Shown: one piece after another, positions 1,542 through 40,276 of the stretch
How positions within the stretch are numbered: position 1 is the first letter of the stretch
Layout: each line of letters starts with the position of its first letter
DNA from: a virus
Lineage: Duplodnaviria; Heunggongvirae; Uroviricota; Caudoviricetes
Virus record (IMG/VR): IMGVR_UViG_2713896903_000005
Length of the DNA: 40,276 nucleotides
Strand: one strand, 5' to 3'
Notes under the pieces: model-generated
Databases searched by the model: none
Seen by the model: the letters and a program-made list of their open reading frames with translations, nothing else
Told to the model about the DNA's origin: nothing
Position numbers and translations under genes: made by a program

Positions 1542-2423
1542 TTACATAGATGTTTCGTTTAATTCTTCCCGACGAACGCTGTAAACGTCGGTGGCTTTTG
1601 CCAGCAGTTCGTCATCATCTGAAAGTTTTTGTGCAATGTATTTGTAAGCCTTATCCAGTTCGGAGACAGTGCTGTAATTCATCGCTGCGTTGGTAAAGGC
1701 CATCAGCATTTCTTCTGGATCACGGCTATCCGCTTTACGCGTTTGCTCATCAGGCTTTTTCACTGTTTTAGCGTTGATCAGACTATTAATTCCCGCAGCC
1801 GTAGTTGTTTGCGGAGTAATGTCTCGCTCTACACGCGGTGTCGTTTCCTGTAATTCGTCAGGGGTGTAAACACCGAGAAGTACATCAGGAGCGTGCAGGC
1901 GAGCCCATCGTTTCGTGCAAAGATAGGCAAGCTGCTGGCGCGGATCCTGTTCCCACAATGGAGAGTTACGCACTCCGGCTTGCGCCATACTGATGGTAAG
2001 CTCACGGGGTTCTGCTTCTCCTTTAAGAACTGCTGACACAGTTACCGTCAGATTCGGTGATTTATCTGTTTTGCCGTTAACATTCGACCAGTCACCGCTC
2101 CAGCGATAATTCAGGCGTGTCGCTAGCAGGCTGGAAGAGGATACGACCGCGTTTACCAACTGCGCTTCGTAGCCTAACGTTCCGTTTACCACATGCGTTT
2201 TCTGCGCCACGGCGAAAGGGTTCATTCCCCACTGTGCCGCCTGCATGGTCACCGCCAGACAATCGGCAGGTTTGCCTTCAAGATGTTTCGGTACAGTCGC
2301 TTTGCTTTGTGACATCAACTCAGCGAAACGCACCAGTTGATTCATGCCCTCGGGGCTGAAGATTGCCGCAGCAGTGCCTACAGTTGCGCCTGGTTGTGAT
2401 GTGATTGCGATATCATTGCTCAT
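1542..2423 (-). CDS. RecT/Red-beta family single-strand annealing recombinase (Bet-like)
   Basis: 293 aa; C-terminal region (CTKRWARLHAPDVLLGVYTPDELQE...ERDITP) resembles the lambda Bet C-terminus; ATGA overlap with the upstream exonuclease gene. Confidence 0.8.
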   Translation of the reverse strand: MSNDIAITSQPGATVGTAAAIFSPEGMNQLVRFAELMSQSKATVPKHLEGKPADCLAVTMQAAQWGMNPFAVAQKTHVVNGTLGYEAQLVNAVVSSSSLLATRLNYRWSGDWSNVNGKTDKSPNLTVTVSAVLKGEAEPRELTISMAQAGVRNSPLWEQDPRQQLAYLCTKRWARLHAPDVLLGVYTPDELQETTPRVERDITPQTTTAAGINSLINAKTVKKPDEQTRKADSRDPEEMLMAFTNAAMNYSTVSELDKAYKYIAQKLSDDDELLAKATDVYSVRREELNETSM

Positions 2424-3241
2424 ACGTACATATCCTGTTTACGTGCCCAGTCAGGGCGTTTAATAATTTCCACGCCGCCCCATTCATCATTTATGCGGCA
2501 TTCGTGATAGGTATTCAGATCCCGGCGGAACAGAGCGTGCCCGGCATCGACATCCTGCGCATCCAACTCGAACACGCGTACCGGATACCGACCACAATCA
2601 ATGCTTTCGCTCACGGCAAGAAATAAAAAACCATGCGGTTGACCAGTAACCCTCATTGCGCCTTCGCGGTACATTGCGTCCTGCACGTGGTAGCGGAATT
2701 CCTCGATGTGGCGTGCAAAACGGTCCATATCTGCAACCTTTTTCACGTCGACGATCACGTTGTGCTCGTTCAGCCATTTGTCTGGACGAATGCGGCACAA
2801 CTCACCAGTATCTTCATCGTTCCAGTACATTGATGCTTCGCAGTAACCAGGTGCTTCCAGCATCCAGCGTGCCGCCGGGTGAGCCATTGCGCTATCACGC
2901 ATCAGCTCCAGTTTCCGCCACTGCTCGGCATCAAGTACCGTAATCCCCATATCCGCCACATCACGAAGAAATGCCTCTTCGTCAGCTTTACCTAGTTTCG
3001 TCCGACGATCGAATTTCGGTGAAACAATGAAGCGTTTGTCGAACTCTCCAGGCTCCAGAAGCAGACAGTGCAATGCGGTTCCCATATCCAGTGCAGACTT
3101 TTTCTCTTCGTCTTCTGGTGCTGCCTGAACCCATTTAAGAAGCGCCGGATTCTTGGCAACCATGTCCAGTTGCGATTTACTCACGCCGTCACCGGCGTGG
3201 TAGTCTTCGTTGCTGATGTCGAAATAAATTCCCGGTTTCAT
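2420..3241 (-). CDS. PD-(D/E)XK recombination exonuclease (exonuclease VIII-like)
   Basis: 273 aa; N-terminus MKPGIYFDISNEDYH and D...E.K-type nuclease core are typical of prophage PDDEXK exonucleases partnered with RecT; SD GAGGGA. Confidence 0.75.
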   Translation of the reverse strand: MKPGIYFDISNEDYHAGDGVSKSQLDMVAKNPALLKWVQAAPEDEEKKSALDMGTALHCLLLEPGEFDKRFIVSPKFDRRTKLGKADEEAFLRDVADMGITVLDAEQWRKLELMRDSAMAHPAARWMLEAPGYCEASMYWNDEDTGELCRIRPDKWLNEHNVIVDVKKVADMDRFARHIEEFRYHVQDAMYREGAMRVTGQPHGFLFLAVSESIDCGRYPVRVFELDAQDVDAGHALFRRDLNTYHECRINDEWGGVEIIKRPDWARKQDMYV

Positions 3242-3537
3242 GCCGCGTCCCTCTGTCCATCAAGCTGATCCGCCAGATCCCAGCGGGCGATAATTGCCAT
3301 TGCCTCTCGCCGATAGGCATCCATCAGTTCTTCGAACTCAGGGCTGTCTTTAGCAGCCTCCAGTACTTCCTGACGAACGCCTTTGCCTGTTACAACGTCG
3401 AAAGTTGAGGACAGTTGATGAAGTCGGATGCTCTCAATCAGTTCAACTTGTCGGTCATATAGCTGTTCTGACAGGCGGTAGTCCTTGTCGAATGCCAGCA
3501 TGATTTTTTGAAGATTTTTCTGCTGATTAACGTTCAT
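3238..3537 (-). CDS. putative host-nuclease inhibitor (Gam-like), weak call
   Basis: About 99 aa; C-terminal segment (PEFEELMDAYRREAMAIIA) loosely resembles lambda Gam (EFQERMAEHIRYMVETIA); sits directly upstream of exo/bet; SD GGGAGGG before the ATG at 3537. Confidence 0.4.
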   Translation of the reverse strand: MNVNQQKNLQKIMLAFDKDYRLSEQLYDRQVELIESIRLHQLSSTFDVVTGKGVRQEVLEAAKDSPEFEELMDAYRREAMAIIARWDLADQLDGQRDAA

Positions 3538-3539
3538 TA

Positions 3540-3692
3540 TCAGCCCTCCCATATCTCGTTATCGTTGGCCACATCGCGAGCTTCTTTGCTGACGAAAGCC
3601 CACTTAATGCCTTCCTGTAAGGTGCGGAACTTCCAGCTCGTGAATCCGCATGCAGTAACGCAGTACCAACCGTTGATGATTTTCCACTGCAT
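3540..3692 (-). CDS. small Trp-rich protein (50 aa) in the Kil-like position
   Basis: Not in the ORF track (below its size cut-off); ATG at 3692 with SD GAGGT 8 nt upstream; first gene after the putative PL promoter; stop lies 2 nt before the next start. Confidence 0.35.
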   Translation of the reverse strand: MQWKIINGWYCVTACGFTSWKFRTLQEGIKWAFVSKEARDVANDNEIWEG

Positions 3693-3725
3693 AACTTGTT
3701 ACCTCGGTCTGTTATCGTTGAGGTA

Positions 3726-3754
3726 ATAATTATGCGTATTTGGTTTGGTGTCAA
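3726..3754 (-). promoter_or_regulatory. putative leftward early promoter (PL-like)
   Basis: Minus strand: -35 TTGACA (3754..3749), 17-nt spacer, -10 AATTAT (3731..3726); flanked by TTACC-N5-GGTAA sites at 3774..3788 (perfect) and 3712..3726 (one mismatch, over the predicted start site). Confidence 0.45.
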
Positions 3755-3773
3755 TAGATATGAGTTAAAAAAA

Positions 3774-3788
3774 TTACCCGCAAGGTAA
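3774..3788. promoter_or_regulatory. operator-like palindrome TTACCCGCAAGGTAA (OL-like)
   Basis: Perfect TTACC-N5-GGTAA just upstream of the PL-like -35. Confidence 0.5.
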
Positions 3789-3800
3789 TTGCGTGGGCAA

Positions 3801-3823
3801 TAAAAAAGCCGCCAGAAGGCGGC
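3801..3823 (-). terminator. intrinsic terminator downstream of the repressor gene
   Basis: Minus strand: GCCGCC-TTCT-GGCGGC hairpin followed by TTTTTTA. Confidence 0.6.
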
Positions 3824-3845
3824 TTACTTTCTGAAAACTATAGTT

Positions 3846-4430
3846 TTATTGTTTGCTTTTTTCGTTCTGGTTGATGACAAATTCAATGTAACTTTCGATC
3901 TTTGCTTTCTCGGTTTCGGGTAACAATGCGTAGCGCGAGCGGTCATAGTTGATGGTTGCAGGGTCGTGCGGGTGAATCAGTAATTCATAGCCGTGACGCC
4001 CGAATGCGGATGCCACATTCTCCAGGGTGGAAATGGAAACGCTAACCTCATTGTTTAACAGGCGGCTGATTGTCACCTGGGCGACGCCGGATGCGCGGTG
4101 TAGTTTTCCCTGCGTTGAAAGGTCGCGGCTTTCGCTCATCCAGCGTTCCAGGTTGTGAGCCGCCAGCTGACCTATATCGCTTGGTCCGACAGGCTGAAAA
4201 CCTTCCTGAGAAAGCGAGCGATCGATATCAAGCCAGTTACGGGGTTTATTGGCGGCAGCTTCAATTTTTCGAGCAACCTGGTCGCCGATAACCTTTTTGC
4301 CAAGAGCCCAGCGGTTTACCAGATTTGCCTGAGTTCCAAGTTTTTCTGCCATCCGCGTCTGAACACCATTGAATTCACGGTCGATCAAGTCGTTGAGATT
4401 TTGCCTGCGGACGTCCTGGATACTTTTCAT
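3846..4430 (-). CDS. prophage repressor (CI-like), tandem HTH, no peptidase domain
   Basis: 194 aa with two XRE-type HTH-like segments (residues about 10-60 and 105-150) and no S24/LexA-like Ala-Gly...Ser...Lys signature; divergent from the Cro-like gene. Confidence 0.7.
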   Translation of the reverse strand: MKSIQDVRRQNLNDLIDREFNGVQTRMAEKLGTQANLVNRWALGKKVIGDQVARKIEAAANKPRNWLDIDRSLSQEGFQPVGPSDIGQLAAHNLERWMSESRDLSTQGKLHRASGVAQVTISRLLNNEVSVSISTLENVASAFGRHGYELLIHPHDPATINYDRSRYALLPETEKAKIESYIEFVINQNEKSKQ

Positions 4431-4485
4431 TTTCTGGAAAATCGCCTCATATATGAATCAGTAGATGATTCAATTTAAAGCAATA

Positions 4486-4500
4486 TTACCCAACAGGTAA
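4486..4500. promoter_or_regulatory. operator-like palindrome TTACCCAACAGGTAA (OR region)
   Basis: Perfect site in the repressor/cro intergenic region; weaker sites at 4503..4517 and 4534..4548. Confidence 0.5.
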
Positions 4501-4530
4501 ATGCACCTCATAGGTAACTATCCTTGATTT

Positions 4531-4559
4531 TTGTTACCTTATGGGTGAATATTTATTAT
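4531..4559 (+). promoter_or_regulatory. putative rightward early promoter (PR-like) with overlapping operator
   Basis: -35 TTGTTA (4531..4536), 17-nt spacer, -10 TATTAT (4554..4559); one-mismatch site TTACCTTATGGGTGA (4534..4548) lies between the -35 and -10. Confidence 0.45.
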
Positions 4560-4584
4560 CTGAAATAAATATCAGGCAATAGCT

Positions 4585-4815
4585 ATGAGCGATAACGGAC
4601 ATTTCGATTTCAAAAAGCACTGGCTTGCACTTACTCCGGATGAGCGTGAAGCCTTCGCACAGGAAGCCGGAACGACGAGTCACTATATCCAGACTCACTT
4701 AACAGGTAAGCGCAAAATGCCAGGTAAGGTATTGATGAATGGGCTTTTTAAAGCCTGTAAAACAAGACAATGGCTGCGCTCAAAAGCAGAACTGGCATAC
4801 TTCTTCTACTCATGA
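4585..4815 (+). CDS. Cro-like small HTH regulator (YdaS/Cro-type)
   Basis: 76 aa, divergent from the repressor and first gene of the rightward operon; central helix-turn-helix-like region. Confidence 0.6.
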   Translation: MSDNGHFDFKKHWLALTPDEREAFAQEAGTTSHYIQTHLTGKRKMPGKVLMNGLFKACKTRQWLRSKAELAYFFYS

Positions 4816-4836
4816 TATCCAGCCACAAACCTCTGT

Positions 4837-4860
4837 AGACCGCCATCCGGCGGTCTTTTC
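4837..4860 (+). terminator. intrinsic terminator after cro (tR1-like)
   Basis: GACCGCC-ATCC-GGCGGTC hairpin followed by TTTT. Confidence 0.6.
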
Positions 4861-4965
4861 ATATCTATTCGTACCTCAAAGGTAATAAAAAACCAAATCT
4901 GGTTGATCTTTTTTTTGTGTCAGCACAAAATAACCGTAATCCCAATACTAATAACAGGGCTTACC

Positions 4966-5166
4966 ATGGAAATCATTACACGTATTGATGCCGCAAAGCG
5001 CGGGCTTAAACGCTACTACACCGGAAAACCATGTAAGCACGGACATGACAGTGAACGCTGGGTTTACAACGGACACTGTGTTGAGTGCACCATGGAATCA
5101 AACCGTCGCATCAGGGCAGAGATTAAGCAGATCATGATTAATTCCTCCCCACAACATTCAAGCTGA
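4966..5166 (+). CDS. small zinc-ribbon protein (66 aa), function unknown
   Basis: CKHGH...CVEC motif; internal ATG at 4966 chosen over the TTG at 4903; in the position of cII-like genes but without obvious HTH. Confidence 0.45.
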   Translation: MEIITRIDAAKRGLKRYYTGKPCKHGHDSERWVYNGHCVECTMESNRRIRAEIKQIMINSSPQHSS

Positions 5167-5181
5167 TAGCGGAGATTAATC

Positions 5182-5997
5182 ATGAGCAGACATGCAACAG
5201 ATTGGGCCTGGGAGACAGATCCAGGTAGCTCGTCATTAAAGCTCATACTGCTCTCGATGGCTGACAGAGCCGATGAATATAACCTCTGCTACCCCAGCAT
5301 AGAACGCCTCGTTAAAGACACTTGCCTGAATAAAAAAACCGTACAGGCCGGGCTTATATCGCTCATGAAAATGGGGCTTATTTCAGATACCGGAGAGAGA
5401 AAGGGAGCGACGAAAAGAGTGCGGGTTTTCTCTCTTAATATAACCAAAAACGGGAACATTAAAGGCAACCGGGAAGGGAGCAATGAACCCGAAAACGGTA
5501 ATGTTCCCGAAAACGGGAATATACCCAAAAACGGGATGTTGAATGATCCCAAAAACGGGATGTTGAATGATCCCAAAAACGGGATCCAGAACCAGTCATA
5601 TAACCAGTCATTTAACCAAGAGAGGGAGAGCAGGACAAAAACCGGGGATTCTGTGCCTCATGACCCCGGCGCAAACAACGCCGTGATGAATAACTTTGTT
5701 CCTCCTGGTGGGCCAGGGCAATTAGGCAAATTTGTCATGCATGAACAATGGCAGCCATCAGATGACTTTCTTCGGAAAAGCTCATTGCAGGGGATCTACC
5801 TGGACAGTCTGCCAACGGCACAGGAACTTGCAGAGTTCAGAATTTACTGGATGGCTGAGGGTAAGGCATACCATCAGGCACAGTGGGAGCAGAAGCTGGC
5901 AAGGCGGCTGCAGATTAGCAGACAGAAGCTATCAACATTACCTGATAACAACGTTCCGCACTGGAACAGCCCTGAAGCATGGGAGGATTTCTTGTGA
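5182..5997 (+). CDS. replication initiator (lambda O-like)
   Basis: 271 aa; HTH-like N-terminus; central peptide repeats (PENGNVPENGNIPKNGMLNDPKNGMLNDPKNG) encoded by DNA iterons; SD GGAG; immediately upstream of the P-like gene. Confidence 0.7.
   Translation: MSRHATDWAWETDPGSSSLKLILLSMADRADEYNLCYPSIERLVKDTCLNKKTVQAGLISLMKMGLISDTGERKGATKRVRVFSLNITKNGNIKGNREGSNEPENGNVPENGNIPKNGMLNDPKNGMLNDPKNGIQNQSYNQSFNQERESRTKTGDSVPHDPGANNAVMNNFVPPGGPGQLGKFVMHEQWQPSDDFLRKSSLQGIYLDSLPTAQELAEFRIYWMAEGKAYHQAQWEQKLARRLQISRQKLSTLPDNNVPHWNSPEAWEDFL
5488..5584. repeat. iteron array (putative ori) inside the O-like gene
   Basis: Five copies of CCC(G/A)AAAACGG(G/T)A starting at about 5488, 5506, 5524, 5548 and 5572 (spacing 18, 18, 24, 24 bp), followed by a more AT-rich stretch. 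Confidence 0.6.
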
Positions 5998-6816: not shown

Positions 6817-6831
6817 TTACCTATTAGGTAA
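6817..6831. promoter_or_regulatory. operator-like palindrome TTACCTATTAGGTAA
   Basis: Perfect site, part of the 17-bp palindrome GTTACCTATTAGGTAAC, upstream of a candidate promoter. Confidence 0.5.
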
Positions 6832-6850: not shown

Positions 6851-6879
6851 TTGATTTCGTGTCTTATGTGGTTTTTAAT
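6851..6879 (+). promoter_or_regulatory. candidate promoter for the nin-like operon
   Basis: -35 TTGATT (6851..6856), 17-nt spacer, -10 TTTAAT (6874..6879); operator-like sites upstream and immediately downstream. Confidence 0.35.
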
Positions 6880-6893
6880 TACCTTAGAGGTAA
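6879..6893. promoter_or_regulatory. operator-like palindrome TTACCTTAGAGGTAA
   Basis: Perfect site overlapping the predicted start site and the SD of the 6897 gene. Confidence 0.45.
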
Positions 6894-10504: not shown

Positions 10505-10519
10505 TTACCACAACGGTAA
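10505..10519. promoter_or_regulatory. operator-like palindrome TTACCACAACGGTAA
   Basis: Perfect site; an adjacent one-mismatch site at 10523..10537 ends at the terS start codon. Confidence 0.5.
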
Positions 10520-10536
10520 CTATTACCACGGTGGTT

Positions 10537-11133
10537 ATGATGCCTGCTGAACCTAAAACCTATAAACGCAAATCAACGCAATTTAAGCCACTAACAGCAA
10601 TGCAGGAGGCTTATTGCCAGTCATACATCAAAACGCCTGAAAACCAGACTCAGGCAGCGATTAACGCAGGATTCTCCCCAAATACAGCGGCAGTTAAAGC
10701 CAGTGTCATGATGCGCGATGAACGCATTCAAAAACGCATTGCCGAGTTGATGGAGGAGCGCAACAAACGAATGCGCGTCAGTGCTGATTACGTTCTCATG
10801 CGCCTGGTGGAGATCGACCAGATGGACGTGATCGACATCCTCAACGACGATGGGAGCCTTAAACCAATCCGTGAGTGGCCGAAAATCTGGCGCACTACGC
10901 TTAGTGGCTTTGATCTGTCATCGACCATCATGAACATGAACGAGGATTCGATAGAGACAATCCTCAAAAAAATTAAATGGCCTGACAAGGTGAAGAACCT
11001 TGAGCTGATTGGTAAGCATGTTGATGTCAACGCGTTCAAAGAACGCCTGGATGTTAATGTGAATGTGACAATTGCTGATCGCATAGCGGCAGCCAGGAAG
11101 CGACTCAAAGAACGTCAGGATGGTAATCAGTGA
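10537..11133 (+). CDS. terS: terminase small subunit
   Basis: Segment AYCQSYIKTPENQTQAAINAGFSPNTAAVKASVMMRDERIQKRI is typical of Terminase_2-type small subunits; ATG at 10537 chosen because the ORF-track TTG at 10459 would read through a terminator and operator sites. Confidence 0.7.
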   Translation: MMPAEPKTYKRKSTQFKPLTAMQEAYCQSYIKTPENQTQAAINAGFSPNTAAVKASVMMRDERIQKRIAELMEERNKRMRVSADYVLMRLVEIDQMDVIDILNDDGSLKPIREWPKIWRTTLSGFDLSSTIMNMNEDSIETILKKIKWPDKVKNLELIGKHVDVNAFKERLDVNVNVTIADRIAAARKRLKERQDGNQ

Positions 11134-13274: not shown

Positions 13275-13351
13275 TGGCGTGGCATGCAGGATTCGAACCT
13301 GCGACCAACCGCTTAGAAGGCGGTTGCTCTGTCCAGCTGAGCTAATGCCAC
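13275..13351 (-). tRNA. tRNA-Arg (anticodon UCU)
   Basis: 77-nt cloverleaf read by hand on the minus strand: acceptor GTGGCAT/ATGCCAC, D-stem GCTC/GAGC, anticodon stem ACCGC/GCGGT with loop CTTCTAA, T-stem GCAGG/CCTGC with loop TTCGAAT, discriminator G, encoded CCA. Confidence 0.85.
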
Positions 13352-13673: not shown

Positions 13674-13688
13674 TTACCCGAAAGGTAA
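13674..13688. promoter_or_regulatory. operator-like palindrome TTACCCGAAAGGTAA
   Basis: Perfect site in the 430-bp noncoding region upstream of the portal/head operon. Confidence 0.5.
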
Positions 13689-30575: not shown

Positions 30576-30804
30576 AACGAATGCCACCGCCGCCAGGGCG
30601 GGAATCCGCAGAACGCCCACCGCAGCGGGAGCCGTCAGCGGCAGTATCGCTGTCGTGCTGACAACGACCGGCAAAGGCCTGAGTTGAAGCTACCAGAGAC
30701 AACAAAACGAACAGTGCAGCAAATGCTTTTTTCATTGTGAAATTTCCATCTATAAGCCACCTCAATGTGGCGTCAATGAGTGTAGCACTGACTTTTGTTT
30801 CGTC

Positions 30805-30830
30805 CACAAAAAAGCCCGCGGCGCGGGCTA
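30805..30830 (-). terminator. intrinsic terminator ending the leftward antirepressor operon
   Basis: Minus strand: GCCCGCG-C-CGCGGGC hairpin followed by TTTTTTGTGG. Confidence 0.6.
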
Positions 30831-31343
30831 TTCTTCATCTTGATTATTTTTATTTGGTCTGTCGTTTCTACCAAGAATAAATACAGAAGCCAAACCAATT
30901 AGATCAACAGTTATTAATGTACCAGCAAATACTGTATCACCGTTCCAAGCAAAAAGAGTGGCAATAGCAAGAATAAGAATTGTGACAGTGAAAGCCATCC
31001 ACTGACCGCGCTTATCTTTATATATTGCACCAGACATAGCCATATATTCCATGCTATGACGATGAGCCTGTTCCTTTTCGCTCCTGACCATTATTCTTTC
31101 GGCTCCGTTATCTACGATTTCGTTGTATTCACGGAGCATTGATGGTGGAGGCAGAGGTCCGCTAAAAGAACTCTTCTTTACAATCGCCATGAACTGAGGC
31201 CGTTCAAGTAAGCGTTGGAGAATGGCTGGGTTTTCAACCAACTCTCCTTCGATTTCCTTGACCTTTTCCTCAGTTACCTTTTCCTGCTCATCACCGGGCT
31301 GTGGCAAGCTGACGTCTTGCTTTTCTTGCACGCAGTCGCTCAT
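30828..31343 (-). CDS. DUF2335-like membrane protein
   Basis: 171 aa; soluble N-terminal region with PPPSMLREYNEIVDNGAERIMVRSEKEQAHRH followed by two C-terminal transmembrane helices. Confidence 0.5.
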   Translation of the reverse strand: MSDCVQEKQDVSLPQPGDEQEKVTEEKVKEIEGELVENPAILQRLLERPQFMAIVKKSSFSGPLPPPSMLREYNEIVDNGAERIMVRSEKEQAHRHSMEYMAMSGAIYKDKRGQWMAFTVTILILAIATLFAWNGDTVFAGTLITVDLIGLASVFILGRNDRPNKNNQDEE

Positions 31344-31506
31344 ATGGCCTCATACTTATCCTTAAGTCATCACCTACAGCCTGAAAGTCATTTCTTATTG
31401 ACTCTGCATCTGAATTACTAGATAGCAGCTTTGTATAATCTGTAGATGGAACCAAATCCAAGATACTACCTGCTGCACGCATAATCCTGCGGGTTGAGCG
31501 CAACAT
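31291..31506 (-). CDS. hypothetical small protein (71 aa)
   Basis: Strong SD AGGAGGT 5 nt before the ATG at 31506; 3' end overlaps the start of the DUF2335-like gene by about 50 nt in another frame. Confidence 0.35.
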   Translation of the reverse strand: MLRSTRRIMRAAGSILDLVPSTDYTKLLSSNSDAESIRNDFQAVGDDLRISMRPYERLRARKARRQLATAR

Positions 31507-31565
31507 ATCGTACCTCCTATTTAACCAAAGGCTTAATTACCTTTGGAGTAAACTTAATTAAAAAA

Positions 31566-31775
31566 CTACTTCCTTACAGTGGCAAGATCCTGTTTAACAA
31601 TTGCAGCAGCGAGACGACGCATCTCCTTAACTTCAGGAAGCTCAGAAATTTGCTGTGATGAAATATATACACCACCACGCTTGTTAACCTGCGCTGACGC
31701 CGGAACTTCTGCATTTTTTGCCTGAGGGCTGAGTGCATTATCCCTCGTTTTTGTACGAGCGGACCAAAATCCCAT
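31566..31775 (-). CDS. hypothetical small protein (69 aa)
   Basis: Strong SD GAGGAGGAG before the ATG at 31775; promoter-like TTGCAG-17-TACTAT upstream with an operator-like palindrome over the start site. Confidence 0.45.
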   Translation of the reverse strand: MGFWSARTKTRDNALSPQAKNAEVPASAQVNKRGGVYISSQQISELPEVKEMRRLAAAIVKQDLATVRK

Positions 31776-31801
31776 ATCTCCTCCTCATGTAAACACATGG
31801 T

Positions 31802-31816
31802 TTACCTTTAGGGTAA
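31802..31816. promoter_or_regulatory. operator-like palindrome TTACCTTTAGGGTAA
   Basis: Perfect site immediately downstream of a minus-strand -10-like TACTAT (31822..31817). Confidence 0.5.
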
Positions 31817-31888
31817 TAGTACGCTATTCACCCCCAGTCTGCAATCTGTACAGAATTATTTAAAGGCACATCCCTGTGCCGCCGCCCG

Positions 31889-32599
31889 TCAGAAGAACCC
31901 TGCCTTGTCGTTGATGTACTCCGCGTGCGTCTGGATATCACGCAGGCATTTGCTCACACCAACGATGTAGCAGAACATGGTGGTCAGCTCCGCCGCCGCG
32001 CCCGATACGTCGTGCCCGTCGTCCTGCAACTGGTTTAGCAGATTCATCAGCAGTGAGTTCTCCGTCAGGCCGAGAACACCAGACGGCGAGTGAATCAGGC
32101 TGCGGTAGCCGGGCTTCAGCGGGGCGCTGTAGGTTTTGTTCTCTATCTTCATTGCCTGCATCACTGCTGACGCCGTGGCGTTGGCTACCTGGTCGGCAAC
32201 CATCTTTATGCGTTCTTCCTGCGGGAGCGAGTTTTTAATGTAACTTCCGGTGCGGCGGATCTGAGGAAGTACCTCACCTGTAACCCATTTACGAAAGCGG
32301 TAGGGGATAGTGCCTGGTGTCACTGCGTCGCGGCAGCGGAGGATCAGTGTGTAGAGGCCTGACTCGGAGATGATGTTGATCTCTTTTACTCGGCGGTCAA
32401 AAATTACACGATGTTCATGCCCTATGTTGAACATAGACCTTTCATCATCATCCAGTTTTTCAAGTGCTTGGGTGACGTTTTGGATACGCAGCGCACTACA
32501 AACGTCTTGGGCTACAAACCATGGTTGGCCATCGATAATGATGGAACGGATAGGGTTAACAGATTCAAATTTGAAGATGGCAGTTTGAGCATTAGCCAT
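31889..32599 (-). CDS. Bro-N domain antirepressor
   Basis: N-terminal Bro-N-like segment (FKFESVNPIRSIIIDGQPWFVAQDVCSAL); C-terminal domain shared with the short 33748..34005 product; ATG at 32599 with SD GGAG (ORF-track start 32614). Confidence 0.65.
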   Translation of the reverse strand: MANAQTAIFKFESVNPIRSIIIDGQPWFVAQDVCSALRIQNVTQALEKLDDDERSMFNIGHEHRVIFDRRVKEINIISESGLYTLILRCRDAVTPGTIPYRFRKWVTGEVLPQIRRTGSYIKNSLPQEERIKMVADQVANATASAVMQAMKIENKTYSAPLKPGYRSLIHSPSGVLGLTENSLLMNLLNQLQDDGHDVSGAAAELTTMFCYIVGVSKCLRDIQTHAEYINDKAGFF

Positions 32600-32753
32600 G
32601 GTGGTTATCTCCACTTAGTGATTTTAATCACCACCGCAACGCCAATTACTGGTGGTGAACTGGACAAGGTTGGCGTACCGGCCTAAGTGGTACCGGCGTC
32701 CTTTCGGACCCCTGCCCAGCCCACCATAATTCGGATATAGCTGTGCTTAACGC

Positions 32754-32777
32754 ATAAAAAAACCACGTCTGGCGTGG
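32754..32777 (-). terminator. intrinsic terminator or attenuator inside the antirepressor leader
   Basis: Minus strand: CCACG-CCAGA-CGTGG hairpin followed by TTTTTTTAT, about 150 nt upstream of the Bro-N start. Confidence 0.5.
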
Positions 32778-32868
32778 TATGCGCCACTTAGTAACTCGGG
32801 ACGCCAATCCCGGCACTGGATTTTGCCAGTGCCCGATTACTATGGCACAAGAGGAGTGCTATGTAAAT

Positions 32869-32883
32869 TTACCGCAAAGGTAA
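32869..32883. promoter_or_regulatory. operator-like palindrome TTACCGCAAAGGTAA
   Basis: Perfect site overlapping the predicted start site of a minus-strand promoter (-35 TTGATT, -10 TTATCA region, about 32890..32918). Confidence 0.5.
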
Positions 32884-32961
32884 TGATAAACGCGAAGAAA
32901 TATTAAAATCAACCGTATTTGGTTGATTGCGTTTAACGCTTGATCACCTGAAAGCAAGATA

Positions 32962-32976
32962 TTACCTTTAAGGTAA
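32962..32976. promoter_or_regulatory. operator-like palindrome TTACCTTTAAGGTAA
   Basis: Perfect site 20 nt upstream of the 32997 start codon. Confidence 0.5.
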
Positions 32977-32996
32977 TGTTATTGTGAGGAAAAGCA

Positions 32997-33725
32997 ATGG
33001 AAGTTTTCTGGATAGTTGTTGGTGTGGTTGCGGTGATTATTTACGTTATCAACCAGAACAAGACTAAGATCTCTGATCGTACGGTCGTTAATCATAACAA
33101 AACGATAAAGACCGAAGATGGGGAGATAACGATTAATCGTACACAGGTGATAGAACACACCTCCACTCAGTTTCAAAAAACGGGAGATAATGCGCCTAAT
33201 ATTTCCGTACCTCCTGCTTATGATAGCGCGGTAATCCAGACATATTATAAACAGCAGGAGTTAGCAAAAGAGAGGCAACTGATTCAGCCAAAGCCATTTA
33301 CAGCAGAGCTTCCACCTGGAGTGTCAACGCGTCCGGCATATCATGGAAGATTCCCTGGTGATGACGTATCGTCTCAGTCACCTAAAAAAGCACCTCAGGC
33401 AGTATCAGAGCCAGCAAGAATACCTTCTGTATCGCCGTCAAAAGAAGAATCAGCTAACGAAGTTTCAAGTGCCCGCAAGCAGTGTTTGCGATGCAGAATA
33501 AACCTTCCATATGAAAAATTCAGGAAATCGTCAAAAAATCCAGATGGATTGACTAAGTGGTGTGCAAGGTGTCTAGATGGCCCAAAGAATACACGTCATA
33601 TGAAGTGGTGCCCAATTTGTAATGTCCGCAGAAAACGAACCAGCTTTTACCCTAATAATCAAAATGCGGACGGCTTAATGGCATGGTGCAAAACGTGCTG
33701 GGATGAGCACAAAGCGAAACGATAG
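32997..33725 (+). CDS. membrane-anchored protein with duplicated Cys-rich zinc-ribbon-like motifs
   Basis: 242 aa; N-terminal transmembrane helix (FWIVVGVVAVIIYVI), Pro/Ser-rich linker, two C-terminal repeats (CLRCR...DGLTKWCARC and CPIC...DGLMAWCKTC); AT-rich. Confidence 0.5.
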   Translation: MEVFWIVVGVVAVIIYVINQNKTKISDRTVVNHNKTIKTEDGEITINRTQVIEHTSTQFQKTGDNAPNISVPPAYDSAVIQTYYKQQELAKERQLIQPKPFTAELPPGVSTRPAYHGRFPGDDVSSQSPKKAPQAVSEPARIPSVSPSKEESANEVSSARKQCLRCRINLPYEKFRKSSKNPDGLTKWCARCLDGPKNTRHMKWCPICNVRRKRTSFYPNNQNADGLMAWCKTCWDEHKAKR

Positions 33726-33750
33726 GCCGCTCTTGCGGCCTTTAAATTTA
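33725..33750. terminator. terminator hairpin between convergent genes
   Basis: GGCCGC-TCTT-GCGGCC hairpin followed by TTTAAATTT on the plus strand and a T-rich run on the minus strand. Confidence 0.55.
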
Positions 33751-34005
33751 CCGGGTTTGTTTTCGTAATTGTTCGGCACAATAGTCGAGATGTGTTTGCA
33801 GATCCTGCATAGACATCTGCGAGCTGGTGACGTAGTTAATCAGTGCAGTCAGTTCGGCAAGTGGGCCATCGACATTAAATCCATCCTTATCGAGATCCCG
33901 GAGTAATTTCATCAAGTGCGATCCCTCCACCAGTGACCTGACGCCTCCCGGCGTGTGAATCCTTTCGGTAAATCCGTCTTCCAGTGGATAGTGATACTGC
34001 TGCAT
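33748..34005 (-). CDS. short antirepressor-like protein, probably SOS-regulated
   Basis: About 85 aa from the ATG at 34005 (SD GGAGAAG); matches the C-terminal domain of the Bro-N antirepressor (TPGGVRSLVEGSHLMKLLRDLDKDGFNVDGPLAELT vs SPSGVLGLTENSLLMNLLNQLQDDGHDVSGAAAELT); a LexA box lies 20-40 nt upstream. Confidence 0.5.
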   Translation of the reverse strand: MQQYHYPLEDGFTERIHTPGGVRSLVEGSHLMKLLRDLDKDGFNVDGPLAELTALINYVTSSQMSMQDLQTHLDYCAEQLRKQTR

Positions 34006-34024
34006 CTTATCTTCTCCATGCAAT

Positions 34025-34044
34025 AACTGTATATTTATACAGTA
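34025..34044. promoter_or_regulatory. LexA (SOS) box
   Basis: AACTGTATATTTATACAGTA matches the CTGT-N8-ACAG consensus with an AT-rich spacer; overlaps the promoter region of the short antirepressor gene. Confidence 0.7.
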
Positions 34045-34081
34045 GCAAATAATTTGTTTGCTATCCAGCACGTTTTGCAAA

Positions 34082-34096
34082 TTACCTGAAAGGTAA
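34082..34096. promoter_or_regulatory. operator-like palindrome TTACCTGAAAGGTAA
   Basis: Perfect site between the antirepressor gene and the tailspike gene. Confidence 0.5.
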
Positions 34097-34200
34097 TATC
34101 TATTCGTATTTATGGGTTATCTATCCATATATGATTTTTAAGGTAATAGAATAACCGGATATGCGGCGCAACGGGTGCTGCGACTATCTGGAGATTTAAC

Positions 34201-36111
34201 ATGACGGTCTCAACAGAAGTTGACCACAACGAATATACAGGTAACGGTGTTACAACTACGTTCCCTTATACCTTTAGGATTTTCCAGAAATCTGATCTGG
34301 TAGTACAAGTGGTTGACCTTGATGAAAATATCACAGTTCTTGCTCTTGATACTGATTACACAGTTACCGGGGCGGGAGGGTATAACGGTGGTAATGTAAT
34401 TCTGTCGAAGGCGTTGGCTAACGGTTATCAGATTTCTATGTATCGAGAGCTACCGGTTACGCAGGAAACCGATCTGCGCAATCAGGGTAAGTTCTTTGCA
34501 GAGGTGCATGAGGATGCGTTTGATAAGCTAACGATGCTGATCCAGCAGGTTCGCAGTTTGTTTACCTTGGCGCTTCGCAAGCCATCATTCGTGGCAAACT
34601 ATTATGATGCTTTGAATAATTACATCCGTAATCTTCGTGACCCGTCTCATCCTCAGGATGCAGCCACCAAGAATTATGTAGATACGCTGGCCAACGGAAA
34701 CCTAAACAGGGTGCTAAGAGTTCCAGAAGCATCCATACCTTCTCTTCCTGACGTTAATGGAAGGAGAAATAAAGCATTAAGTTTTGATGCATCTGGTAAC
34801 CCCTTGCTTTTAGATCCTGCAGGCAGTGGATTATGGGGATATGTTCTTATCGATTCGTTCCAGGCTGGAGCAAAAATATCAACCCGTTACGAAGCATTGC
34901 ATTGGCCTCTTCCTGATGGGGATGGTGAATATTATCGTTGGGATGGAGTATTGCCTAAGGAAGTCCCTGCAGGATCAACCCCTGACTCAACTGGTGGAAT
35001 AGGAATTGGGGCGTGGGTTGGTATAGGTGATGCATCATTAAGATCTGACTTGGCAGATAATCTAATCCCAGGAGCAAGCTTGGTATCAATACATTCTGGG
35101 ACGGTTAACGATGCTCTTGTGTATAACACTCCAGAAATGTTTGGCGCGCGACCAGACGGTTCTGTAGATGCATCTTCAGCTATTATTGCAGCAGGAAAGG
35201 ATGGCATTGGTAGTTATGGTGTAAATAAAGTTCTCCTCACAGGAGGTTCAGAAAGAACATTTGATATACAGTCTGATACAAATTCTCTTATCCTGTCATT
35301 CGGAAGACCATTTATTAATGGTATGGGAAATGGTGAGATAATCGATGTAAGAAGAACGATAAATCGCCCTATTAATAATAAAGGCCATTCTTCTTATCTT
35401 ATAGCTCACCGTGGGTATGTGAATGTACATGCTGAAAATACGGTCGCATCAATTAGTCTTGCGGCAAAATCTTGCCATGCTGTAGAGGTTGATGTTCAGA
35501 CCACATCTGACGGTCGATATGTTGTTTTTCATGACTTTACCACTGGTAATTTAATGAATAATGATCTAACTGTAGCAACATCAACCCTAGAACAACTTCA
35601 GGCATTAAAATATAAGAAAATGATTGGTACAAAATATGAGTACCATTGCAGGATTCCTACATTTGAGCAAGTTCTTGACGCTTGCCGTAGAACAGGCACT
35701 GAAATTTGGTGGGAGATTATGTCAACCAATACACCAGATCAAGTTGATGGTATGATACAGGCCGTCATTGATTATGGAATGGAACACAATGCTGTTTGCA
35801 CCACCGGAGTAGTATCTAACTTATATCTTCTCCGCAATAAATCTGAAGATATGAGAGTTCAATTAACTTCATCCAGCGCGACCCCCGATGAAACAGTGAA
35901 AGATATGGTTCGTCATCTTCGCCATATTGGTAATGGAACTCTTGCAATTGAGTATATTGACATGACAAACAGGCCATGGATACCTGAATATTGTTACCAA
36001 CGAGGCGTGGATATTGTTGTTTACACATTGTTTGCGTCTTATCAGGCGGTTCAAGCAAGAAACATCGGGATTCGGCAGATCATGTGTAACCAACAAGTAG
36101 GAGTTGAATAA
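34201..36111 (+). CDS. tailspike with C-terminal glycerophosphodiester phosphodiesterase (GDPD)-like domain
   Basis: N-terminus (NEYTGNGVTTTFPYTFRIF) matches the conserved particle-binding domain of podovirus tail fibres and tailspikes; C-terminal region carries GDPD-type motifs (IAHRG...ENT...VEVDV...DGRYVVFHD, later RIPTFEQVL...EIWWEI); SD GGAG. Confidence 0.7.
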   Translation: MTVSTEVDHNEYTGNGVTTTFPYTFRIFQKSDLVVQVVDLDENITVLALDTDYTVTGAGGYNGGNVILSKALANGYQISMYRELPVTQETDLRNQGKFFAEVHEDAFDKLTMLIQQVRSLFTLALRKPSFVANYYDALNNYIRNLRDPSHPQDAATKNYVDTLANGNLNRVLRVPEASIPSLPDVNGRRNKALSFDASGNPLLLDPAGSGLWGYVLIDSFQAGAKISTRYEALHWPLPDGDGEYYRWDGVLPKEVPAGSTPDSTGGIGIGAWVGIGDASLRSDLADNLIPGASLVSIHSGTVNDALVYNTPEMFGARPDGSVDASSAIIAAGKDGIGSYGVNKVLLTGGSERTFDIQSDTNSLILSFGRPFINGMGNGEIIDVRRTINRPINNKGHSSYLIAHRGYVNVHAENTVASISLAAKSCHAVEVDVQTTSDGRYVVFHDFTTGNLMNNDLTVATSTLEQLQALKYKKMIGTKYEYHCRIPTFEQVLDACRRTGTEIWWEIMSTNTPDQVDGMIQAVIDYGMEHNAVCTTGVVSNLYLLRNKSEDMRVQLTSSSATPDETVKDMVRHLRHIGNGTLAIEYIDMTNRPWIPEYCYQRGVDIVVYTLFASYQAVQARNIGIRQIMCNQQVGVE

Positions 36112-36923: not shown

Positions 36924-37130
36924 GTTTACACAAACACAATCACAAACCCATTATGGCTCATATTGGAGAAAGATTAGCACAAAACACCCCATAACCTTAA
37001 CAAGGTATGATTCTGGGAAAATAACCCAAAAGGTAATTTCCACAATGGTGTTAGCTTGTTTTAATACATATACGGTTTGTTGTGTATAATTGACTCACCA
37101 ACTAAGGGGGTTATTCATGTACAGTAAACG

Positions 37131-39204: not shown

Positions 39205-39744
39205 TTAGTTAAACCAGCTATCAGATTTATTTTCTTCTGCTTTGCCGGCACTTTTCATCAAATCGCGTCCGCCTTCCGACATATTGCGGTTCGCATCGGC
39301 TTCTGACTGAACAACATCAGTATGCGCAGCCTGACGCTTAAGCTCCTGATCGATGTACTCGTTTTCCCTTTTTACTCGCGCTTCTTCTTTCGCCAGTGCC
39401 AGTTTTTGCTTCTGGATTTCTAAACTGCGCAACTCATCTTCATAACCTTGATCACGCTGTTTATCTTTGGTGGCTTCAGCATCCAACTTGTCCTGACGAG
39501 CTTGTCGTGCTGCCGCAGCAGCTGCGGCTTTCTTATTCGCTGCTGCCTGCGCATTTGCGCGTCGTTGCCTTTCTTGTTGGACTTCTCTGTTGCGCTCCGC
39601 TACCCATTCATCATGCTCTTTTTTCTCTTCATTTTTGCCCTGCTGTTCAGCTTCTGCAACTGCGGAGAGCTGATCCTGTAATGAAGAGGCAAAGGTTGTG
39701 TTGCTTAGCGTAGCCAGAATTGCGCACAGCAGTATTTTCTTCAT
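39205..39744 (-). CDS. secreted coiled-coil protein (periplasmic), function unknown
   Basis: ATG at 39744 gives signal peptide MKKILLCAILATLSNTTFA; the rest is highly charged, Ala/Gln/Glu/Lys-rich; SD AGGGGGGGG. Confidence 0.45.
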   Translation of the reverse strand: MKKILLCAILATLSNTTFASSLQDQLSAVAEAEQQGKNEEKKEHDEWVAERNREVQQERQRRANAQAAANKKAAAAAAARQARQDKLDAEATKDKQRDQGYEDELRSLEIQKQKLALAKEEARVKRENEYIDQELKRQAAHTDVVQSEADANRNMSEGGRDLMKSAGKAEENKSDSWFN

Positions 39745-39760
39745 GACCCCCCCCTGATGA

Positions 39761-40276
39761 TTATTTTTTCTCAGGGCATGTCGCGTTTGGCTGAATGCGG
39801 GTTTCATTGTAAGCAGTGGAGATAACAACTGCTAAACCAGTAGTGAATTGGCACTGTTTGCCAACCTGGGTTGAGGTATAAACTTTTTTCCCGTCTTTAT
39901 AGGTTAAAGACACACCTTCAACTAAAGTTTTATCACTTACCATGGAGCCTGCTGCCGCACCTGCCGCACCACCTCCGACTGCACCAGCCGTGGTATTCAG
40001 GCTGCTGCCGGAACCTACGTTATGGCCCACAACACCACCTGCCACTGCACCAAGAACAGCGCCAAAAGTCTGTGCTGCTTGTTTATTTTTCGTATTATCT
40101 ACCGCTACTTTTGCTGGTAGCACGGAAATAATATTAACTGTTTTGGTCTCTTGTTTTGAGTTCAGCTGATCTGTTTGATAAACATCAGCAGCATGATCAT
40201 CTGCATTGGATTGACAGCCAGCGAGAGTGAAAGAAGCCAAAATAGCTACAGGTAAGAAACATTTTTTAAAGTTCAT
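39761..40276 (-). CDS. SlyB-like glycine-zipper outer-membrane lipoprotein
   Basis: Lipoprotein signal with lipobox LAGC; Gly-zipper segment (GAVLGAVAGGVVGHNVGSG...AGAVGGGAAGAAAG) and overall pattern like the SlyB/Pcp family; may be host flank or phage cargo. Confidence 0.55.
   Translation of the reverse strand: MNFKKCFLPVAILASFTLAGCQSNADDHAADVYQTDQLNSKQETKTVNIISVLPAKVAVDNTKNKQAAQTFGAVLGAVAGGVVGHNVGSGSSLNTTAGAVGGGAAGAAAGSMVSDKTLVEGVSLTYKDGKKVYTSTQVGKQCQFTTGLAVVISTAYNETRIQPNATCPEKK

Follow-up and report, generated by a model that had tools for sequence, protein, structure and literature searches.

Positions 3700-4584 of a 40,276-nucleotide tailed-phage sequence (IMG/VR record IMGVR_UViG_2713896903_000005; we call this whole stretch of DNA the window) very probably form the primary immunity region of a Uetakevirus of the phiV10 type, a podophage resembling epsilon15, running a repressor/antirepressor (Rep/Ant) switch of the kind described for Salmonella phage SPC32H. 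This reading draws on sequence comparison, and the switch itself is already known: the locus is a near-identical copy of the annotated and partly tested phiV10/ZX5 locus, and the mechanism has been solved in SPC32H.

Identity and layout of the locus

Database comparison of the stretch 3500-5200 gave 97-98% nucleotide identity to phiV10, the O157 typing phages 9 and 10, ZX5, PAS61 and others, with phiV10 and ZX5 DNA ~97.6-97.9% identical at the locus and Enterobacter phage Tyrion more distant at ~77%. Compared with phiV10 p40 and vB_EcoP_ZX5 ORF21 there is practically no difference within 3700-4584. The locus is also common in the host, being found in 562 of 5426 complete E. coli genomes (~10%).

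An original prediction made from the sequence alone had described an immunity region built like that of lambda, with divergent repressor and Cro-like genes. Both features are there: reading from left to right, the left promoter and operators (PL/OL) are followed by a terminator and the repressor gene on the minus strand (an open reading frame, ORF, of 194 codons), the right operators (OR) and a cro-like gene of 76 codons on the plus strand (Table 1). On the left, rep is flanked by small leftward genes and RecE/RecT; on the right, the cro-like gene is followed by replication genes. Plus-strand ORFs such as 3508-3726 and 4155-4478 were rejected as genes; they run antisense within rep or across PL, and none is annotated in phiV10.

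A repressor lacking a cleavage module and a putative LexA-controlled antirepressor

Rep is identical to phiV10 p40 at 193 of 194 residues and likewise to ZX5 ORF21. The phiV10 record lists p40 as a 'putative transcriptional repressor' with two helix-turn-helix (HTH) motifs (PF01381) and similarity to epsilon15p38, and in the ZX5 study overexpression of ORF21 abolished free phage and lowered endolysin and holin transcripts by 99.99% and 99.97%, respectively. Residues 1-190 of Rep align with the SPC32H repressor (PDB 5D50_A, E 3.5e-42), and its C-terminal half aligns with PDB 5D4Z.

The repressor had been predicted to lack an S24 peptidase signature, and a domain search agrees, as Pfam returned no Peptidase_S24 match to Rep even at E<=1. 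The sequence contains no Ala-Gly or Cys-Gly dipeptide and no cysteine, so that the C-terminal Peptidase_S24 domain, Ala-Gly site and Ser/Lys dyad that mark lambda CI-type repressors are absent, and RecA-stimulated autocleavage of Rep is ruled out by the missing S24 domain and the missing cleavage dipeptide. We also rejected Rep as the antitoxin of a toxin-antitoxin pair, its matches to HigA, HipB and VapB lying far under their cut-offs.

The second component of the switch is encoded some 29 kb away. The 85-residue product of the putative ant gene matches SPC32H Ant (PDB 5D50_E) with E 4e-47 over 83 residues, and a canonical LexA box is predicted just upstream of the gene; the ant leader, the LexA box and the adjoining operator are conserved in SPC32H, epsilon15 and ZX5. 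In SPC32H, Rep reportedly stays uncleaved on SOS induction and is inactivated by Ant, and LexA is said to repress the ant promoter; the SPC32H Ant is also said to be structurally distinct from the Gifsy/Fels antirepressors. The original prediction favored induction mediated by an antirepressor rather than by RecA. The antirepressor half of this claim is well supported because Rep is a full-length homologue of SPC32H Rep without an S24 domain or cleavage site and because an Ant homologue with a LexA box is present; the exclusion of RecA does not hold, as RecA and the SOS response would still be needed through cleavage of LexA. The antirepressor route, too, is already known for this phage family.

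Operators at OR and OL

Every operator-like palindrome of the immunity region proved to be one 15-bp motif, TTACC-N5-GGTAA, and an alignment of the window with Tyrion, SPC32H and epsilon15 (the four phages meant below) shows it at matching points of OR and OL. Across OR the half-sites are invariant in all four and the central 5 bp are variable. Palindromes had been predicted on both sides of the repressor gene; the three graded sites at OR were recovered, but OL has two sites, 62 bp apart and flanking PL, rather than one. The promoter-proximal of these carries a mismatch in the window, and Tyrion, SPC32H and epsilon15 have a perfect site at the homologous position. SPC32H and epsilon15 differ further in having a third OL site, which falls within ~70 bp missing from the window. 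The middle operator and the PR-proximal one mirror each other within 4501-4550, their imperfect half-sites pointing outward, and the segment holds an inverted repeat with 18-nt arms centred on the conserved TTGATT, an arrangement that is not found in SPC32H.

Promoters and terminators

For PL, a consensus scan recovered the predicted promoter with its perfect TTGACA -35 element, and the block GTCAATAG that holds this hexamer is invariant across the four phages. The right promoter (PR) is less clear. The predicted TTGTTA-17-TATTAT is present and matches the consensus at nine of 12 positions, but its -35 hexamer is not conserved, reading TT-TCA in SPC32H and epsilon15, and it is rivalled by an overlapping TTGATT at 4524-4529 that is invariant in all four phages. 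We therefore consider that the true PR may sit ~7 bp upstream of the predicted one, as TTGATT-17/18-(G)AATAT(T), with a transcript start ~6-8 bp more upstream; we give this alternative an even chance. In its favor, SPC32H carries TTGATT-17-ATAATT at the aligned position; against it, within the window the TTGTTA promoter scores higher (9/12 versus 8/12) and has a 17-bp spacer, and both candidates may be used.

On the other strand, a weak candidate promoter for rep overlaps the perfect operator nearest the gene, which suggests negative autoregulation of rep; by eye, the same hexamers can be seen in SPC32H. The terminator that had been predicted directly after the repressor gene is a hairpin followed by a T-run, with a folding energy of -16.5 kcal/mol (z = -3.55 versus shuffled sequence). 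Directly after the cro-like gene there is another strong terminator and then an operator (4871) and the promoter-like TTGATC-17-CAAAAT (together 4837-4931); from this arrangement, the replication genes may be a unit of their own under Rep control and not be reached by read-through from PR.

Copies of the operator across the genome

The operator motif extends well beyond the immunity region. Ten perfect copies of TTACC-N5-GGTAA occur in the window against 0.03 expected, all ten of them intergenic, together with six imperfect copies (one mismatch each) that are likewise intergenic. The motif recurs in equivalent places in SPC32H, epsilon15 and Tyrion, including pairs of sites separated by 62 bp, and in the epsilon15 RefSeq record equivalent positions are annotated 'protein_bind: repressor, lysogeny'. 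The idea of dispersed operators is also not new, because that record already annotates such sites; a literature search for published operator sequences of epsilon15 or phiV10 found nothing specific.

The paired sites are exact in their spacing. Start-to-start distances of 62 bp recur at two loci in four phages, at 3712/3774 and 6817/6879 in the window and, in the comparison sequences, at 33604/33666 and 35972/36034 (L003), 32555/32617 and 35907/35969 (L004), and 3165/3227 and 6235/6297 (L002). This conserved spacing suggests that a single tetramer may bridge both palindromes of a pair, which would lie on one face of the helix.

Operator copies stand where the units for replication, terminase, head, tailspike/ant and lysis begin, from which we suggest that Rep probably silences these units directly and not by way of a lambda-style antitermination cascade. 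Taken to its full extent, Rep may be a genome-wide repressor acting at ~16 palindromes to shut every transcription unit, both of its own antagonists included, with the 62-bp pairs looped by a p53-like tetramerisation domain; together with two antirepressor inputs, such a phage would be a lambda/P1/Gifsy hybrid in a 40-kb podophage. We regard this wider proposal as evenly balanced between true and false.

The sites outside OL and OR might alternatively not be Rep operators at all and could serve the Cro-like protein, a late regulator or the packaging or replication machinery, or act as promoter elements. In favor of this, some are next to late genes for which no sigma-70 promoter was seen. This explanation is nevertheless unlikely, as these sites share the sequence found at OR and OL and keep their places in four phages, the curated epsilon15 record calls them repressor sites, and copies occur upstream of both antirepressor genes, a sensible place for sites of a repressor.

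A second antirepressor module

One of these two antirepressor genes is ant; the other is predicted to encode a Bro-N domain fused to an Ant-like C-terminal domain. Residues 155-231 of this Bro-N::Ant protein match PDB 5D50_E (E 2e-13), and the protein is 81% identical to ZX5 ORF4, overexpression of which, in the ZX5 study, dropped the prophage titre from 10^9 to 10^6 (~1000-fold). Its gene is preceded by an IsrK-like RNA and a C4 antisense RNA (Table 1), and an antirepressor gene with a C4 RNA in its leader is the mark of the immI type of phage P1. In P1, C4 controls icd and ant. With two putative Rep operators upstream, Bro-N::Ant and its RNAs look like a second antirepressor circuit resembling P1 immI and Gifsy-1; the antirepressor-like anrP gene of Gifsy-1 stands downstream of IsrK and is controlled by it.

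It is conceivable that induction proceeds chiefly through Bro-N::Ant under C4/IsrK control, with the LexA-controlled small Ant in a lesser role. The Ant-like domain, the position of the gene behind both RNAs and the ~1000-fold effect of the ZX5 orthologue all speak for such a P1 immI-like circuit, but we think it quite improbable as the main route, because the small Ant is far nearer to the experimentally proven SPC32H Ant and has a conserved LexA box. The two routes need not be mutually exclusive, and induction by the small Ant remains our preferred reading.

Domain architecture of Rep

The repressor had been described as a tandem-HTH protein. Two stretches of Rep do match HTH_3 in Pfam, the better at residues 106-147 (E 1.2e-9), and a sub-threshold YdaS-like HTH lies at residues 21-61; the second module, however, corresponds to the dimerisation domain of the solved SPC32H homologue. 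Secondary descriptions of SPC32H Rep give three modules, an N-terminal DNA-binding domain (DBD), a middle dimerisation domain (MDD) and a C-terminal CAD/'TetDloop' that tetramerises and binds Ant. According to these descriptions the tetramer binds DNA and the dimer does so weakly, and a tetrameric Ant takes two Rep dimers and so splits the tetramer. The two Rep proteins are 43% identical overall; with approximate domain boundaries, identity is highest in the DBD (53%), nearly as high in the C-terminal tail (51%) and lowest in the middle domain (33%). By analogy with SPC32H, a Rep tetramer would bind the operator and be dissociated by an Ant tetramer in the window phage as well.

That Rep acts as a single-chain tandem-HTH repressor, both modules of one polypeptide touching DNA with one per half-site as the original prediction implied, is very improbable: although the strongest HTH_3 match falls in the second module and the phiV10 annotation records two HTH motifs, the module after the DBD is described in SPC32H as the MDD and the DNA-binding pairs there as N-terminal domains contributed by different dimers, the symmetry of the palindromic operators suits two identical domains, and the two modules differ in sequence, the second being the least conserved with SPC32H despite identical operator half-sites.

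The Cro-like gene

The 76-residue protein encoded divergently from rep matches phrog_35 'transcriptional repressor' (E 5.6e-13) and has no sequence match in Pfam, NCBIfam or PDB; its 48 database relatives are all 'hypothetical' and all from Enterobacterales. An AlphaFold (AF2) model built from 23 sequences (pLDDT 88) shows five helices, and its best Foldseek matches are all lambda-repressor-like HTH proteins, namely YdaS (8co2), the 434 repressor (1pra) and P22 c2 (3jxb). The label 'Cro-like' is reasonable by predicted fold and by position, and the size of the protein also suits a Cro-type lytic repressor.

Neighboring genes and the remainder of the window

The accessory region 30700-34250 is mosaic among the window phage, phiV10 and ZX5. 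Between the two antirepressor modules, a plus-strand ORF of 242 codons (32997-33725) has a weak, sub-threshold match to a Stc1-like cysteine-rich domain (Pfam E 4.4e-4), and a perfect operator overlaps its upstream region. A gene for tRNA-Arg (anticodon TCT) lies at 13275-13351 on the minus strand between the terminase and head genes, with one at the same place in SPC32H. At 1542-3241 on the minus strand, a RecT-like protein (293 residues) and an exonuclease (273 residues) are encoded by separate ORFs, likewise in Tyrion and ZX5, unlike the single fused 'recET' coding sequence of the phiV10 record. In the right end (39205-40276, minus strand) there are genes for a DUF5384 protein and for a protein of the glycine-zipper/TraT-like kind. 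The 40,276-nt window lacks both an integrase gene and the ZX5 att core ATTGAGTGGGAATGATT; because these are missing and because of the DUF5384/TraT-like right end, the window is not a simple circular permutation of phiV10.

Table 1 Features of the immunity system in the window. Positions count from the first nucleotide of the window; genes, promoters and operators are named by putative function.
Feature	Position	Strand	Sequence	Remarks
Left operator, promoter-proximal	3712..3726		TTATCGTTGAGGTAA	1 mismatch; abuts PL -10
PL-like promoter	3754..3726	-	TTGACA-17-AATTAT	10/12 consensus match; leftward early operon (gp39/gp38 homologues, RecE/RecT)
Left operator, distal	3774..3788		TTACCCGCAAGGTAA	perfect; 20 bp upstream of PL -35
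Intrinsic terminator of repressor transcript	3798..3825	-		8-bp GC-rich stem 3825..3806, then T-run; annotated in phiV10
rep	3846..4430	-		194 residues, non-cleavable repressor; N-terminal HTH DNA-binding domain, HTH_3-like middle domain, putative C-terminal tetramerisation/Ant-binding tail
Candidate rep promoter	4472..4501	-	TTTACC-17/18-TTAAAT/TAAATT	weak, 8/12; overlaps operator 4486-4500
OR site nearest rep	4486..4500		TTACCCAACAGGTAA	perfect
OR middle site	4503..4517		GCACCTCATAGGTAA	2 mismatches
PR region, two overlapping candidates	4524..4559	+	TTGATT-18-AATATT; TTGTTA-17-TATTAT	4524-4553 and 4531-4559, respectively
OR site over PR	4534..4548		TTACCTTATGGGTGA	1 mismatch; imperfect at this position in all four phages
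Cro-like gene	4585..4815	+		76 residues, predicted five-helix HTH protein; position as for first gene of rightward operon
Intrinsic terminator after cro-like gene	4837..4856	+		-15 kcal/mol, z = -4.80 versus shuffled; annotated in phiV10 (after p41)
Operator	4871..4885		GTACCTCAAAGGTAA	1 mismatch; ahead of promoter-like TTGATC-17-CAAAAT for replication genes
DnaT-like protein gene	5182-5997			replication gene on the right side, followed by lambda-P-like protein gene
Operator pair	6817-6831 and 6879-6893			62 bp apart, before DUF1064 gene; same pair and spacing in Tyrion, SPC32H and epsilon15
Operators	10505-10519 and 10523-10537			perfect and 1 mismatch, respectively; directly before start codon of small terminase subunit at 10540; counterpart 12-27 annotated as repressor binding site in epsilon15 record
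Operator	13674..13688			ahead of head-gene operon; epsilon15 counterpart 2931-2947 annotated as repressor binding site
Operator-like site	31537..31551		TTACCTTTGGAGTAA	1 mismatch; between two small minus-strand ORFs
Operator	31802..31816		TTACCTTTAGGGTAA	perfect; upstream of minus-strand ORF 31566-31775
Bro-N::Ant gene	31889..32599	-		236 residues; putative second antirepressor
C4 antisense RNA (RF01695)	32648-32731	-		66 bits (gathering score 45); directly upstream of Bro-N::Ant start codon at 32599
IsrK-like RNA	32756-32832	-		Rfam, 67 bits, above gathering score; leader of Bro-N::Ant gene
Two operators	32869-32883 and 32962-32976			both perfect; upstream of RNA/antirepressor module and of divergent gene at 32997
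ant	33748..34005	-		85 residues; homologue of SPC32H Ant
LexA box	34027..34042		CTGTATATTTATACAG	predicted, canonical; 22 bp upstream of ant
Operator	34082..34096			between ant and tailspike gene; epsilon15 counterpart annotated as repressor binding site
Operator-like site	37022..37036		TAACCCAAAAGGTAA	1 mismatch; ahead of lysis cassette; counterparts at SPC32H 24782 and epsilon15 24704

Discussion

The closest model for the window is the SPC32H Rep/Ant switch (PDB 5D50 and 5D4Z; Kim and Ryu 2013; Kim et al. 2016), with which it shares the gene order (rep, a divergent gene of 76-77 codons, and ant beside the tailspike gene), a repressor homologous over its full length and free of an S24 domain, a closely similar Ant preceded by a LexA box, and the same operator palindrome with three OR sites. 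It differs in that Bro-N::Ant with its C4/IsrK RNAs is not in the SPC32H gene table. Likeness to lambda lies in the arrangement: the order PL/OL, repressor, OR and cro, repressor and cro genes that diverge from a tripartite OR, in which three operators lie between divergent promoters, and a repressor transcript terminated ahead of PL. Unlike lambda, the window has a repressor without an S24 autocleavage domain, so that induction would run through an antirepressor instead; its active repressor would be a tetramer formed through a different C-terminal module; terminators stand directly after both rep and the cro-like gene; and operators are dispersed over the genome in place of reliance on an N/Q cascade.

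With phage P1 the window shares one repressor with many operators across the genome, as for P1 C1, and an antirepressor gene preceded by a C4 RNA and by repressor operators, as in immI (c4 RNA, icd, ant). The P1 C1 operators, however, are asymmetric, unlike the palindromes of the window; the proteins, compared by name alone, are unrelated; and the window phage has a LexA-controlled Ant in addition. A non-cleavable repressor inactivated by a LexA-repressed antirepressor is also found in the Gifsy/Fels prophages (Lemire et al. 2011, PMC3121763).

Several observations weigh against assigning an SPC32H-type switch to this locus or against parts of it. Promoter-like matches in the region number 3 against 3.4 expected in shuffles; because they are no more frequent than by chance, PL and PR are assigned on position and conservation. 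When each dispersed operator was inspected, no consistent sigma-70 promoter was seen beside the late-gene sites. At OR the perfect site covers the presumed rep promoter instead of PR, an arrangement at odds with the order of operator occupancy in lambda. The Foldseek matches of the Cro-like model are weak (E ~1, TM 0.53-0.62, root-mean-square deviation 2.3-3.2 Å). Finally, Rep is just 43% identical to SPC32H Rep (51% in the Ant-binding tail) and Ant is much more conserved than this, its target, so that compatibility between Ant and Rep in the window phage would have to be presumed from homology. The identical operator half-sites in four phages and the conserved Ant also raise the question whether cross-immunity and cross-induction occur between phages of the phiV10 and epsilon15 types.

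The most reasonable model, putting these elements together, is the following. In the lysogen, Rep would be made from the weak leftward promoter beside OR, its transcript ending at the hairpin 3806-3825. The N-terminal HTH domains of Rep would bind TTACC-N5-GGTAA, in which the half-sites are one helical turn apart, while the middle HTH_3-like domain would dimerise the protein and the C-terminal tail would build the tetramer, the DNA-binding form. Of the three OR sites, the one at 4534 would cover PR and the one at 4486 the presumed rep promoter, and the two sites bracketing PL at a distance of 62 bp would suit a tetramer that holds two palindromes together. On DNA damage, RecA-stimulated cleavage of LexA would free the ant promoter, and Ant would bind the C-terminal domains of Rep and split the tetramer into weakly DNA-binding dimers, whereupon PL and PR would fire. 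The Cro-like protein, made from PR, would presumably lock in the lytic state.

As a discovery the finding is of small value, since phiV10 and ZX5 hold almost the same locus, already annotated and in part tested. The genome-wide operator set with its fixed 62-bp pairs would, however, make a compact model in which to study how a looping tetramer represses, and the second, RNA-controlled antirepressor would be useful knowledge for engineering phiV10-based reporter phages. This type of immunity is carried by ~10% of complete E. coli genomes, and its SOS inducibility through Ant may be useful for predicting which prophages are induced by antibiotics.

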